Shown here: in pieces, positions 28,123-31,344 of the stretch
Numbering within the stretch: the stretch's first letter is position 1
Layout of the letters: every line of letters starts with the position of its first letter
Virus record (IMG/VR): IMGVR_UViG_3300048672_000524
Coordinates: 1-64,000 of that record
Length of the DNA: 64,000 bases
Reading direction: 5' to 3' (one strand)
DNA from: a virus
Taxonomy: Duplodnaviria; Heunggongvirae; Uroviricota; Caudoviricetes
Position numbers and translations under genes: made by a program
The notes under the pieces: generated by a model
Database searches by the model: none
Seen by the model: the letters and a program-made list of their open reading frames with translations, nothing else
Told to the model about the DNA's origin: nothing

Positions 28123-28399
28123 TTACAGCATTAGTTTCTGCTACACGCTTATTGTACGCAGTAGCAGCGTCATCTTCGGCACGATTCATCTGTTCTAGGA
28201 GGAATACTGCGATGCCTAGGTCTTGGGCCATTTCACGGTCAATAGGGAACTGGCGACCACAAGTGTCTTGAAATACGGCAGTATCTTCATCTACTAGCAT
28301 ACGATACCAGTAAAGATGACCATCCGGACTCTGGAACATAGTCCCATCATCATCAAACTCGTTAATGTCAACACGGCCAAATAGGAATTCTTTTTGCAT
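28088..28399 (-). CDS. hypothetical protein
   Basis: ORF track. Confidence 0.35.
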   Translation of the reverse strand: MQKEFLFGRVDINEFDDDGTMFQSPDGHLYWYRMLVDEDTAVFQDTCGRQFPIDREMAQDLGIAVFLLEQMNRAEDDAATAYNKRVAETNAVIEHFSKERYGE

Positions 28400-28704
28400 T
28401 ATAGATTATTAAAAAATAGTTCGTCGTTAAAAGCTTTATCATCTACCCAAACATCATAGCTAGGTTTACCCATTCTAACTTCGGTAAACTTACATCCCCA
28501 GCTAATTAATTGTAGTAACGTAAAGTCTGTCCAATCAATACCAGTATTAGCACCTCTAGCTGTCCAGTAGATAATCTTATTACCTTCCCAGAATAATTTA
28601 TTAACCTTTTCAATACGACACTGAAAAGGTTGTGCTTTACTGTATTCTCCAAAAGTACTATTACAGATAGTACCGTCAATATCAATAATATATGTCTTTT
28701 TCAT
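28399..28704 (-). CDS. small HAD-like hydrolase
   Basis: N-terminal IIDIDGTI (DxDGT) motif. Confidence 0.5.
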   Translation of the reverse strand: MKKTYIIDIDGTICNSTFGEYSKAQPFQCRIEKVNKLFWEGNKIIYWTARGANTGIDWTDFTLLQLISWGCKFTEVRMGKPSYDVWVDDKAFNDELFFNNL

Positions 28705-28708
28705 ATAT

Positions 28709-28790
28709 TGGTATCCGAGGAGGGATTCGAACCCTCACGCACTAGGCGGGAAATTTTCCTACTACTATAGCTTTCGCTACCAATTACTTG
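28709..28790 (-). ncRNA. tRNA-like element (canonical T-arm + CCA, acceptor stem not paired)
   Basis: GAGGG-TTCGAAT-CCCTC then CTCGGAT-A-CCA; 5' strand GGTAGCG does not pair. Confidence 0.3.
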
Positions 28791-28911
28791 TTTGTAGTCT
28801 GGACTATGCCTTCATCTGTTCTAGATGGCGAGTGTCTAGTCTCTACACCTTCCCTATTAAGGGCTTGGCTCGGCGTTACCATAGGTAAGGATTCACCGAA
28901 TTTACTCGCAT

Positions 28912-29403
28912 TCAGCCTAAGAGTCCCTTCTTAGCTGCTCTCTGTACATCGGCACCATATTTACCAGAACACCTACGAGAGCAAAAAGGTCCTACTTTAC
29001 CACGGCTTTTATCGCGGCTGCGTTGAGACTGCTTTGCAGGTGTTAGTGTAATATTTATACCGCAATAATAACAAGGAACAAATATATCTTCCTTGTACTT
29101 TATAGAGTGTTCACGAACGTGCTGGGATTTCAGTACTACTTCTAGATTTGATATATCATTATTTGATACATCTCCATCTATATGATGTACATCTTCATTA
29201 TCAGCAAGAGATACTCCTAAGTAACTCTCTACTAGCATCCTTGGATAAGATATAGTTTGTTTATGTCCATTTTCATGGACTATAACGCATCTACTTCTAC
29301 CATCTTCCTTGGACACATAAGGTCCGTAAACTACCATGTCATTAAAGTCTCCTGTGTCTACCGTTCCACCACCCGGACATATCCTATTAGCTAAAACGCG
29401 CAA
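28912..29403 (-). CDS. HNH homing endonuclease
   Basis: VHHIDGD...N...H HNH motif plus C-terminal CxxC zinc ribbon. Confidence 0.7.
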   Translation of the reverse strand: MRVLANRICPGGGTVDTGDFNDMVVYGPYVSKEDGRSRCVIVHENGHKQTISYPRMLVESYLGVSLADNEDVHHIDGDVSNNDISNLEVVLKSQHVREHSIKYKEDIFVPCYYCGINITLTPAKQSQRSRDKSRGKVGPFCSRRCSGKYGADVQRAAKKGLLG

Positions 29404-29830
29404 TAAGAATCATTGGGATTGTTTCATCATCCTTATTTACGCGAGCTGGTACAGTAACCGTACTTCCGTCTAGGAAGCGTTGTACAGCAAGGTCAATGCC
29501 AATCTTCTTGTTGTAAGAATCACCTGGTACGCAGTACGCTACAGATACTTCTACCATACGGCAGCTACGATCTTCGCTGGCCTTCTTATAGGCAATAGTT
29601 ACTCCACCAGCTAGTGGCTGAAGACGATCAAATACGTGTAGAATGTTAATTCCGCAATCCTTAGCTACTTCTCCTAGTGGTTTTACTTTCGTAGCTAGAT
29701 CAGCTTTATGAGCCTTAGTAGCCGGAATAAATGGAAATAAATCCACCTTTACGGGAAAAGTTGGGAAAGGCCATGAAGCCGCTTCTTTCATTTTTTGAAT
29801 AATCCTAGTAGTTAAAGAATAATTATACAA
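29387..29830 (-). CDS. hypothetical protein
   Basis: ORF track. Confidence 0.35.
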   Translation of the reverse strand: MYNYSLTTRIIQKMKEAASWPFPTFPVKVDLFPFIPATKAHKADLATKVKPLGEVAKDCGINILHVFDRLQPLAGGVTIAYKKASEDRSCRMVEVSVAYCVPGDSYNKKIGIDLAVQRFLDGSTVTVPARVNKDDETIPMILIARFS

Positions 29831-29842
29831 TATAAAGAAGAC

Positions 29843-30220
29843 TTATTCAAGACGATTAATTTGCGCCTGAGAGTCTCCTGGTAGAACTCTATAATTGTCC
29901 TCTACGCTATCTGCTGTAGAAACTTCAACTATAGTACCTTTTTCGATACAGGTAAGCTGATGTGGTAGTAAAGGAGGATTATGCCAGGTACTTCCTGGCA
30001 CCAAGTATTTATCGTTTACTTTAGCGGTATCTGTTTCTATCCAGCTTACTAAGAATTTACCGCTTTTTACATACCAGGTTTCATCCTTTTTAGCATGAAA
30101 ATGCATACTAAATTTAGAACCTTCGTAAAAGTTTAATAACTTACCACAGTACAGATCATTAGTAGCAAAGATTATTTCGCAACCCCAACCTTTTTTAATT
30201 TCACCGGTAAGTCTGGTCAT
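29843..30220 (-). CDS. cupin-fold protein (possible sugar isomerase/epimerase)
   Basis: His-rich cupin barrel motif HFHAKKDETWYV...G. Confidence 0.45.
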   Translation of the reverse strand: MTRLTGEIKKGWGCEIIFATNDLYCGKLLNFYEGSKFSMHFHAKKDETWYVKSGKFLVSWIETDTAKVNDKYLVPGSTWHNPPLLPHQLTCIEKGTIVEVSTADSVEDNYRVLPGDSQAQINRLE

Positions 30221-30980
30221 AGTATTCTTCCATTCTTTCTTCTAATTCTTTTAATTTTGGCTGATATGTACCATTATGTTCTACTGAGATACCTGCATTT
30301 ACTATTCCAAATTCAATAGCACTATGCATAGAATTAGATGTTAAACTTCCGTATACTAGTCCAGCTAGGAAAGCATCACCGGCACCACAAGTATCTTTAG
30401 CGATTGTTTTTAATGCTGTGTACCTATGCTGACCCCAAATTGCGCCTTTGTCACCAAGGGTGATGATTGCGCTAGGTGGGACACCTTGGGTAGACTTAGC
30501 CTCTGCTAAATTGATTTTTAACTGGCACTTATCGAAGTGAGATACGTCTTTCTTTTTGGTATCAAGAAAAATTGGGCCTGTAAATCTATTTTGAATATCC
30601 CAGATAGTTTCGTTACTAATGAAACCTTTACAGTAATCAGAGATTACAATTGCATCGAATACTGAAAGATTTACATTAGATATATCTACTGCTTCTACAG
30701 GTTTCTCACTATCTAAGCGTAATAGTTGATTGCCAGTTTTATTATCTATAAGGCGAAGCTTTGTAGATGTGTTAGGATCAGGGTGAATAATTAAAGTATC
30801 TATACCCAAGTTCGATAGACATAGATTTACATTATTTACCATACCGTAAGAAGCGGTTTTACGTACCGAAGTATAAAGAGGAGCACTAGGTGCTTCTGGG
30901 TTTACCCTATTAACTTCTACGTAATGTTGTAAGTCTAAACAACTATCACCTATTAACAATACTTGTTGTGCTTTTTTCAT
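30201..30980 (-). CDS. pfkB/ribokinase-family sugar kinase (HldE domain I-like)
   Basis: pfkB signature DTCGAGDAF; ribokinase-like N-terminus. Confidence 0.7.
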   Translation of the reverse strand: MKKAQQVLLIGDSCLDLQHYVEVNRVNPEAPSAPLYTSVRKTASYGMVNNVNLCLSNLGIDTLIIHPDPNTSTKLRLIDNKTGNQLLRLDSEKPVEAVDISNVNLSVFDAIVISDYCKGFISNETIWDIQNRFTGPIFLDTKKKDVSHFDKCQLKINLAEAKSTQGVPPSAIITLGDKGAIWGQHRYTALKTIAKDTCGAGDAFLAGLVYGSLTSNSMHSAIEFGIVNAGISVEHNGTYQPKLKELEERMEEYYDQTYR

Positions 30981-31344
30981 TAAGTTCCACGTATTCTATT
31001 TTGTCACAGTACTCACTACCTATGACATTCTTACCCTTATAATCACTACCCTTCACCATAATAAACTCTGTAGCAGTAGAGCTATATAGATTCATTATGT
31101 TGCGAAGTTCCTGATCGCTATTAAAATAGACCACCTTATCGGCTAACTTTAAAGCCTCTATCATGCGTATTCTATCTTTTAGTGTATTAATTGGTCGGGT
31201 GGAGCCTTTAGTATTTCTTATACTACTGTCGTCATTTAAAGCAACAAGCAAAAAACCTCCTAGAGTCTTTGCGTACTCTAAGAGGTTTAAGTGACCAGTA
31301 TGCAACACGTCGAAGCATCCGTTAACAAATATAATTCGTTGCAT
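30946..31344 (-). CDS. cytidylyltransferase-family nucleotidyltransferase (HldE domain II / RfaE-II-like)
   Basis: NGCFDVLHTGH (GCFDxxHxGH) nucleotidyltransferase motif. Confidence 0.7.
   Translation of the reverse strand: MQRIIFVNGCFDVLHTGHLNLLEYAKTLGGFLLVALNDDSSIRNTKGSTRPINTLKDRIRMIEALKLADKVVYFNSDQELRNIMNLYSSTATEFIMVKGSDYKGKNVIGSEYCDKIEYVELNEKSTTSIVNR

Follow-up and report, generated by a model that had tools for sequence, protein, structure and literature searches.

What would a T5-like phage gain from four small genes that resemble the parts of a heptose-activation pathway? The question is raised by a 64,000-nucleotide stretch of viral DNA (IMG/VR record IMGVR_UViG_3300048672_000524, positions 1 to 64,000; hereafter the window), which represents 64 kb of a 104-kb source contig and corresponds to the early region of a T5-like phage, rich in tRNA genes (24 of them) and provided with T5-type replication genes. 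Four genes on its minus strand, the strand that also carries the surrounding phage tRNA genes, encode a nucleotidyltransferase, a pfkB-family sugar-phosphate kinase, a small metal-site cupin and a putative minimal HAD phosphatase. We consider it fairly probable that these four genes form a virus-borne pathway leading from a sugar phosphate of central metabolism to a nucleotide-activated heptose, the most likely product being ADP-D-glycero-beta-D-manno-heptose. This supports the original prediction, made from the sequence alone, of a split HldE-like kinase and nucleotidyltransferase acting in a nucleoside diphosphate (NDP)-heptose pathway: HldA is the best match of the kinase, the nucleotidyltransferase scores highest with RfaE domain II among curated families, and the partner genes found in related loci are HldD-like and GmhB-like.

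The genes follow each other in the order nucleotidyltransferase, kinase, cupin, orf147, tRNA-Leu (with its intron and an HNH open reading frame (ORF)) and HAD, and the four protein-coding cassette members lie where they had been predicted. The nucleotidyltransferase gene (30946..31344, minus strand) and the kinase gene (30201..30980, minus strand) are indeed adjacent, in reversed order relative to the two domains of HldE, and overlap by 35 nt, while the kinase and cupin genes (the latter at 29843..30220, minus strand) overlap by 20 nt, the kinase start lying within the nucleotidyltransferase gene and the cupin start within the kinase gene. The HAD gene stands apart at 28399..28704 (minus strand). 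The overlapping arrangement of the first three genes suggests translational coupling. A nucleotidyltransferase/kinase overlap of 35 to 47 nt recurs in relatives and is therefore conserved and not a matter of chance. A promoter and terminator scan of positions 27300-32100 returned the same counts as shuffled sequence. The family matches of the four proteins are far beyond chance (phrog_8133 at 6e-61 and phrog_7878 at 3e-37, in addition to those given below), and the catalytic motifs of all four are intact and conserved among their homologs.

The kinase and the nucleotidyltransferase

The 259-residue kinase, of the HldA or RfaE-domain-I type, matches PF00294 (PfkB) at 5e-14. It carries the predicted DTCGAGDAF signature at residue 196, together with NLAE at residue 157 and RVNPEAP at residue 25; D196-TCGAGD and N157/E160 are invariant in 33 homologs, in keeping with a pfkB/ribokinase fold and its DTxGAGD and NxxE motifs. 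It is closer to the heptose-7-phosphate kinases than to other pfkB kinases. A profile built from the 33 homologs finds Burkholderia HldA (4e84) as its best PDB match, with 101 bits and an E-value of 5e-28, while ribokinases do not exceed 55 bits, and the N-terminal segment on the substrate side, with its R-x-x-PEAP motif, reaches 46 bits against HldA and 2 bits against ribokinase. Moreover, the seven best Foldseek matches of the AlphaFold2 (AF2) model, whose mean confidence (pLDDT) is 95.8, are all HldA, and RfaE domain I (TIGR02198) ranks first among the NCBIfam families, with 84 bits. The assignment of this protein as an HldA-like heptose-7-phosphate kinase is thus well supported by homology.

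The nucleotidyltransferase, of the HldC or RfaE-domain-II type, comprises 132 residues and matches PF01467 (CTP_transf_like) at 1e-14. The predicted GCFDVLHTGH motif is found at residue 9 and STTSIVNR at residue 125; both H15-T-G-H18 and S125-TT...R132 are present, with H15, G17 and H18 invariant in 21 homologs, as in a cytidylyltransferase-like fold with HxGH and a C-terminal STT...R. Its best NCBIfam family is TIGR02199 (rfaE_dom_II), with 116 bits against 48 for the TagD-type glycerol-3-phosphate cytidylyltransferases. Over its full length it is 36% identical to domain II of Escherichia coli HldE (E-value 6e-26), and the best single-domain PDB match of its family profile is HldC (5x9q), with 96 bits. 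An HldC-like role, coupling heptose-1-phosphate to a nucleotide, is well supported by these similarities, and ATP is the likely nucleotide.

NAD salvage by a nicotinamide mononucleotide adenylyltransferase (NMNAT) and a nicotinamide riboside kinase, the scenario named beforehand as fatal to a sugar pathway, was considered and rejected. NadD and other NMNAT-type families reach at most 21 bits (PDB E-values of 0.03 or more), compared with the 116 bits of RfaE domain II, and the kinase belongs to the pfkB family, not to the P-loop kinases.

The cupin

The third protein, of 125 residues, matches phrog_7851 at 3e-40 and contains the motifs HFHAKKDE at residue 40 and PPLLPH at residue 82. The residues of the metal site, H40/H42/E47/H87, are invariant in 35 homologs, and the AF2 model (pLDDT 82) is a standard cupin barrel. 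The protein is thus a double-stranded beta-helix with HxH...E...H metal ligands, as in the metal-binding cupin class; in both fold and sequence it falls outside the SIS family of GmhA. Small sugar isomerases are found among its fold matches, including D-lyxose/mannose isomerase and the 112-residue phosphomannose isomerase of Thermococcus (7zvy).

The cupin family is unusually conserved, with thousands of clusters at about 70% identity, and it has been named in several ways: PHROGs and RefSeq have it as "cysteine dioxygenase", JGI as "mannose-6-phosphate isomerase-like", and several GenBank cyanophage records as "putative nucleotidyltransferase". Some of its members pass PF01050. In a protein library clustered at 50%, the cupin is fused to the small HAD protein in four clusters and to the nucleotidyltransferase in one, some of which could be gene-calling artefacts; no fusion to a short-chain dehydrogenase/reductase (SDR) occurs in the sample examined.

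Distant homologs, with 45-47% identity, were also observed in three Terriglobia loci (L109, 9968..10345, L110 and L113), directly downstream of a UDP-GlcNAc 2-epimerase gene and with no kinase or nucleotidyltransferase nearby. The family is thus, judging from its neighbours, also found in another sugar context.

The small HAD protein

The last gene of the cassette encodes a putative capless HAD phosphatase of only 101 residues. It matches phrog_1238 at 1e-24 and, weakly, the capsule-phosphatase family TIGR01689 (6e-6). All four catalytic motifs of the superfamily (DxDxT, S/T, K and DD) can be recognised, as DIDGT at residue 8, WTARG at residue 47, GKP at residue 79 and DDK at residue 88, and 15 or more of 16 homologs conserve residues D8, D10, T12, T48, K80, D88 and D89. 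These intact motifs support a protein that works like a phosphatase, and not its membership of the GmhB family. Indeed, there is no significant similarity to E. coli GmhB (E-value 1.4) and no match to a GmhB or HAD-IIIA family in NCBIfam, and the GmhB-like genes of other cassettes cluster separately. The protein belongs instead to a mainly viral family of roughly 100-residue proteins, and it sits where other cassettes have a GmhB-like gene. The original prediction had seen in it a GmhB-like step that would complete the pathway; the likeness to GmhB does not hold at the sequence level, but a separate family of minimal HAD proteins could carry out this step.

Two names that have spread widely through the databases look wrong. 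The PHROGs name of phrog_1238, "phosphoheptose isomerase", misleads, since the fold is that of a HAD phosphatase, and the phrog_7851 cupin, called "cysteine dioxygenase", appears to be the better isomerase candidate.

In one related locus (L086:6569..7570, 333 residues) the small HAD protein is fused to an N-terminal domain of about 215 residues with marginal likeness to SIS/GmhA. The idea that this locus documents a natural swap was dropped: the domain has no Pfam match, its pairwise BLAST E-value with E. coli GmhA is 1e-3 and that with SIS regulators in the PDB is about 1. The same locus also carries the cupin, beside its SDR gene, and the swap cannot serve as evidence either way.

Conservation of the cassette

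The phage of the window is, by the sequence comparisons made here, only distantly related to anything catalogued, because megablast of positions 28000-31500 and 48000-64000 found no near-identical DNA in known phages and because its DNA polymerase shares 51% identity with the polymerases of T5-like phages of marine Vibrio. A scan of viral contigs with a single protein found no relatives, while an alignment-based scan did recover viral loci. To the loci found earlier were added 80 viral ones that carry the kinase family and 16 genomic ones that carry the cupin family; neighbourhoods were counted in the 58 loci in which the kinase has 4 kb or more of sequence on either side.

In this neighbourhood of the kinase, the nucleotidyltransferase is present in 55 of these 58 loci, the cupin in 54 and an SDR in 50, and the cupin directly adjoins the kinase in 32 loci. 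As for phosphatases, the small HAD protein is found in 12 and a GmhB-type protein in 11. GmhA is found in none of the 58, nor in any of the 111 metagenomic, viral and genomic loci searched. The partners themselves point to heptose: the SDRs score as ADP-glyceromanno-heptose 6-epimerase (HldD-like, 210-230 bits, against 50-70 for GalE), the larger HAD proteins score as GmhB (133 bits), and a fused kinase-nucleotidyltransferase scores as HldE (321 bits). Furthermore, two cellular contigs (L103, 357 kb, and L101, 335 kb) unite an HldE-like fusion, an HldD-like gene, a GmhB-like gene and this cupin.

Among catalogued phages, the kinase occurs only in 31 records of cyanomyoviruses or marine viruses, at 28-40% identity, and all 31 also have the cupin. 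Except for a misfiled Salmonella chromosomal contig, none of them belongs to the 13 records in which a GmhA homolog occurs. In the same phage collection no Demerecviridae record contains the kinase or the cupin, and the module is, as predicted, not part of canonical T5. Two further T5-like contigs, L004 (84.7 kb) and L005 (99 kb), have the arrangement of the window; they lack an SDR, and the four proteins show 50-65% identity. The T5-like phages are therefore a new lineage for the cassette, represented by three metagenomic contigs and by no catalogued Demerecviridae, and theirs is a minimal variant, with no epimerase and, in the window, no detectable glycosyltransferase. The novelty implied by the original prediction holds for T5-like phages, but the cassette itself is not new in kind: it is annotated in cyanomyoviruses (PMC7378029), and has been since their first genomes.

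Proposed pathway and alternative explanations

[quoted passage not shown] The HldA-like kinase would then phosphorylate O1 to give the 1,7-bisphosphate, from which the 101-residue HAD protein would remove the 7-phosphate, as its position, its intact motifs and its fusions suggest. Finally, the HldC-like nucleotidyltransferase would couple the resulting heptose-1-phosphate with a nucleoside triphosphate to form NDP-heptose, probably ADP-heptose. An HldD-type epimerase is missing from the T5-like version, whose product would therefore be heptose in the D,D form.

We infer the role of the cupin in this scheme from its near-obligate partnership with the kinase, from the consistent absence of GmhA, and from its retention in T5-like phages that have no SDR, as well as from its fusions to the phosphatase and to the nucleotidyltransferase. 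The chemistry is plausible, because small cupins are known phosphosugar isomerases and because GmhA is an enzyme with an active-site Zn2+ (PMC11056994). In its strongest form, the proposal is that this family of about 120 residues is a non-orthologous replacement of GmhA that, together with the minimal HAD protein, gives phages a self-contained route to activated heptose that starts from an intermediate of the pentose-phosphate pathway or the Calvin cycle and works whether or not the host makes heptose; this route would be common in myoviruses of marine and fresh waters and have its barest form in T5-like phages. We advance this stronger claim tentatively, our doubt slightly outweighing our belief. 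The proposal of a cupin in place of GmhA is itself new.

Several observations weigh against the pathway as drawn. Both central enzymes score below the equivalog cutoffs of their families (84 bits against 345 for the kinase with TIGR02198, 116 against 181.5 for the nucleotidyltransferase with TIGR02199). The kinase is 24% identical to domain I of E. coli HldE, relative to which it has deletions of 27 and 19 residues; it lacks about 50 residues relative to HldE, as well as the full-length architecture of about 310 residues, and with these deletions and its score it is best treated as a divergent relative and not as an equivalog. In the PDB profile search, TagD (88 bits) is nearly as close to the nucleotidyltransferase as HldC, so that its nucleotide and substrate are assigned provisionally. 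The fold matches of the cupin are non-specific, with KdgF, the epimerase domain of CapF, dioxygenases and isomerases all scoring alike, and the cupin directly adjoins an SDR gene in 23 loci. The host could supply GmhA. A phosphatase of any kind lies within 4 kb of the kinase in only 24 of the 58 loci, and in some phages this step may therefore fall to the host or to a gene located farther away. Precomputed Pfam hits, PHROGs and Pfam revealed no glycosyltransferase or epimerase in the 64-kb window, to which our searches for transferase, epimerase and DNA-modification genes apply.

Some of these observations would fit a different division of labour, in which the kinase and nucleotidyltransferase still make NDP-heptose, from heptose-7-phosphate provided by the GmhA of the host, and the cupin acts downstream on the sugar or nucleotide sugar, for instance by epimerising a keto intermediate in the manner of CapF or RmlC, or as an oxygenase that depends on a metal. 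The top fold matches do include the cupin of CapF, which is a C3-epimerase domain with an SDR as its partner; in addition to the 23 loci with adjoining genes, the cupin gene in L086 overlaps the SDR gene far from the kinase, the Terriglobia homologs stand in a nucleotide-sugar context, and PHROGs labels the family as a dioxygenase. Yet the kinase is the immediate neighbour of the cupin more often than the SDR is (32 loci against 23), and the known fusions join the cupin to the phosphatase and the nucleotidyltransferase, never, in the sample examined, to an SDR. The T5-like phages keep the cupin without any SDR, and a keto-sugar substrate would be missing there. GmhA was found neither in the 58 loci nor in any complete cassette-bearing phage genome, and the His3-Glu metal site that is invariant in this family is not known from RmlC-type epimerases. 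We hold a downstream role for the cupin to be rather unlikely.

Less likely again, and in our view improbable, is that the sugar is not a heptose. The same enzyme logic could have a hexose or some other phosphosugar as its substrate, as in a route from fructose-6-phosphate through mannose-6-phosphate and mannose-1,6-bisphosphate to NDP-mannose, or the nucleotidyltransferase could be a TagD-like cytidylyltransferase acting on a polyol phosphate. The sub-cutoff scores of both enzymes and the deletions in the kinase could be read in this way, as could the proximity of TagD in the profile search, where ethanolamine-phosphate cytidylyltransferase also scores highly, and the mannose-6-phosphate isomerase-like label of the cupin with its PF01050-passing members. 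The partner enzymes argue for heptose: the SDRs are HldD-like, and epimerisation at C6 of the glycero side chain fits only a heptose, while the larger phosphatases are GmhB-like. Moreover, the substrate side of the kinase matches HldA and not ribokinases, and among curated families RfaE domain II exceeds the TagD type by 116 to 48 bits. The heptose pathway starting with the cupin thus remains the reading that we prefer.

Possible destinations of the sugar

The activated heptose could be transferred to lipopolysaccharide (LPS) or other surface glycans of the host by host transferases, or by a phage transferase encoded outside the window. In myoviruses, the cassette stands among polysaccharide-type glycosyltransferases, methyltransferases and sulfotransferases, and not among DNA-modification genes. 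The sugar could instead serve to hypermodify the DNA or the tRNAs of the phage, a use that is compatible with the same pathway and was among the roles suggested by the original prediction, which also named interference with the ADP-heptose/LPS metabolism of the host as a candidate. In favour of this, the cassette is embedded in a tRNA gene cluster, with a tRNA-Phe gene 14 nt upstream and the tRNA-Leu gene inside it, and the phage has other RNA-related genes, namely a transfer-messenger RNA (tmRNA) and a Ro60/TROVE protein. On the other hand, the tRNA region of T5 is a general site for accessory genes, the setting in myoviruses is of the polysaccharide type, and neither a glycosyltransferase nor a base-hydroxymethylase or other DNA-modification gene was detected in the window. 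Hypermodification of nucleic acids is, in our opinion, highly improbable.

If the heptose pathway is correct, at least two unrelated phage lineages, T4-like and T5-like, bring their own supply of activated heptose, one of the components from which the outer surface of Gram-negative bacteria is built, and such phages could, without depending on the metabolism of the host, alter the surface of the cell that they infect or attach sugar to their own particles. The cupin could also represent a new family of enzymes at the first committed step towards heptose, which is being studied as a target for antibiotic adjuvants (PMC11056994). The four proteins are all small and can be expressed easily.

Genomic context

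The HAD gene is separated from the cupin because an intron-split tRNA-Leu(UAA) gene with an HNH endonuclease lies between them. The stretch is more than a spacer, as it also holds orf147. Exon 1 of the tRNA (29345..29378, 34 nt, minus strand) ends at U34, and exon 2 (28709..28757, 49 nt including CCA, minus strand) ends 4 nt before the HAD start codon. Between U34 and A35 lies a group I intron of 587 nt (28758..29344, minus strand), which ends in G and whose core (28972..28777) matches Rfam RF00028 with 60.7 bits (gathering score 50) and an E-value of 2e-14. The exons, delimited by sequence and joined, give an 83-nt tRNA-Leu(taa) with ARAGORN, whose default scan missed the gene. By sequence, the element thus combines a score above the gathering threshold, insertion after U34, a terminal G and exons predicted to splice into a valid tRNA. 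The junction is confirmed by the T5-like contig L004, where the syntenic tRNA-Leu(UAA) is intact, its CTTAAAA anticodon loop being identical and its anticodon stem showing compensatory changes. We take the insertion site to be the same as that of the classic cyanobacterial and plastid tRNA-Leu intron.

Inside the intron lies the gene of an HNH homing endonuclease (PF13392 HNH_3, 2e-8; phrog_14913, 2e-20), which comprises 141 residues when read from the in-intron ATG at 29337 (28912..29337, minus strand); the mechanically listed ORF of 163 residues starts upstream of exon 1. The neighbouring orf147 (29387..29830, minus strand, 147 residues, TTG start) could be assigned to no family, having no Pfam, PHROG or NCBIfam match and no homolog in 113 collected loci, including the syntenic ORFs of L004 and L005. 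It was therefore rejected as a fifth pathway member and probably lies outside the pathway.

Other features of the window are recorded here in their own right. A permuted, two-piece tmRNA lies at 26019..26419 (minus strand; Rfam tmRNA_permuted 118 bits, beta_tmRNA 105 bits), and its tag peptide, read by ARAGORN as ANDSIFEVRLAA, may hint at the host lineage. The Ro60/TROVE-domain protein (442 residues, 36139..37467, minus strand) is encoded in the tRNA region and has a counterpart at L004:1067..2395; a search of Rfam found no Y-RNA-like partner. Rfam also adds a tRNA at 44602..44673 (minus strand, 38.4 bits) that is absent from the ARAGORN list, and 47706..48209 (minus strand) encodes a protein with the N-terminal domain of dATP/dGTP diphosphohydrolase (PF18909, 3.7e-27).

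The DNA polymerase A gene (12111..15505, minus strand) is in two pieces, of 574 and 177 residues, around a LAGLIDADG endonuclease ORF (12721..13575). On its two sides there are matches to group I introns below the threshold (28.6 bits, E-value 8e-5, and 23.2 bits, E-value 4e-3), and the insertion is probably a second, divergent group I intron. Three paralogous endonuclease VII or HNH-like ORFs stand among the tRNA genes (39463..40056, 41719..42366 and 46372..46989, minus strand), and further ORFs of homing-endonuclease type are found at 32419..32985 (HNH) and at 17995..18711 and 2098..2889 (GIY-YIG). The region is, to judge from these predicted genes, heavily colonised by mobile endonucleases.

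Comparison with known systems

The closest described counterpart is the cassette PSSM2_309-313 of the Prochlorococcus phage P-SSM2, a T4-like myovirus and one of the 31 catalogued records. It comprises the same four families (nucleotidyltransferase, kinase, phrog_1238 HAD and phrog_7851 cupin), at 35-47% identity to the proteins of the window, and its nucleotidyltransferase and kinase genes likewise overlap. In P-SSM2 the cassette is compact and is followed by an HldD-like epimerase, with glycosyltransferases and other sugar-modifying genes around it, whereas the window belongs to a relative of the T5-like siphoviruses with no epimerase or glycosyltransferase in its 64 kb, and its HAD gene is split off by an ORF and the intron-split tRNA. 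The function of the "LPS/heptose genes" of cyanomyoviruses has been taken from annotation only, and it is from annotation alone that the literature assumes a remodelling of the host surface (LPS) by the cassette (PMC7378029, PMC7029224). Our literature search found no paper that tests the cassette, places it in T5-like phages or describes a cupin-type sedoheptulose-7-phosphate isomerase.

The small cupin isomerases of known structure, the phosphomannose isomerase of T. kodakarensis (7zvy) and a D-lyxose/mannose isomerase (7nzo), are single domains of about 110-180 residues with a His/Glu metal site that act on manno-configured sugars. The phage cupin shares 15-20% identity with them, and they rank no higher than KdgF, the CapF domain or dioxygenases among its matches. 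The likeness is thus one of fold and metal site, and activity of the phage family on seven-carbon sugars is putative.

With the GmhA-HldE-GmhB-HldD pathway of E. coli, the proposed phage pathway shares the logic of an isomerase, a 1-kinase, a 7-phosphatase and a nucleotidyltransferase, and its kinase and nucleotidyltransferase are homologs of the two HldE domains (24% and 36% identity). Unlike E. coli, the window phage has no HldD and no SIS-fold GmhA, for which the cupin is the candidate replacement, and its phosphatase candidate is an unrelated minimal HAD protein of 101 residues, compared with the 191 of GmhB. Its kinase and nucleotidyltransferase are, moreover, encoded by separate genes in reversed order. 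In the separation of the two the phage resembles Burkholderia, where HldA and HldC (4e84 and 5x9q) are separate polypeptides. The phage kinase is about 50 residues shorter than Burkholderia HldA and about 22% identical to it, and the phage genes, unlike those of Burkholderia, overlap and are adjacent in the nucleotidyltransferase-kinase order; nevertheless, these two split enzymes are the best solved-structure matches of the phage pair.

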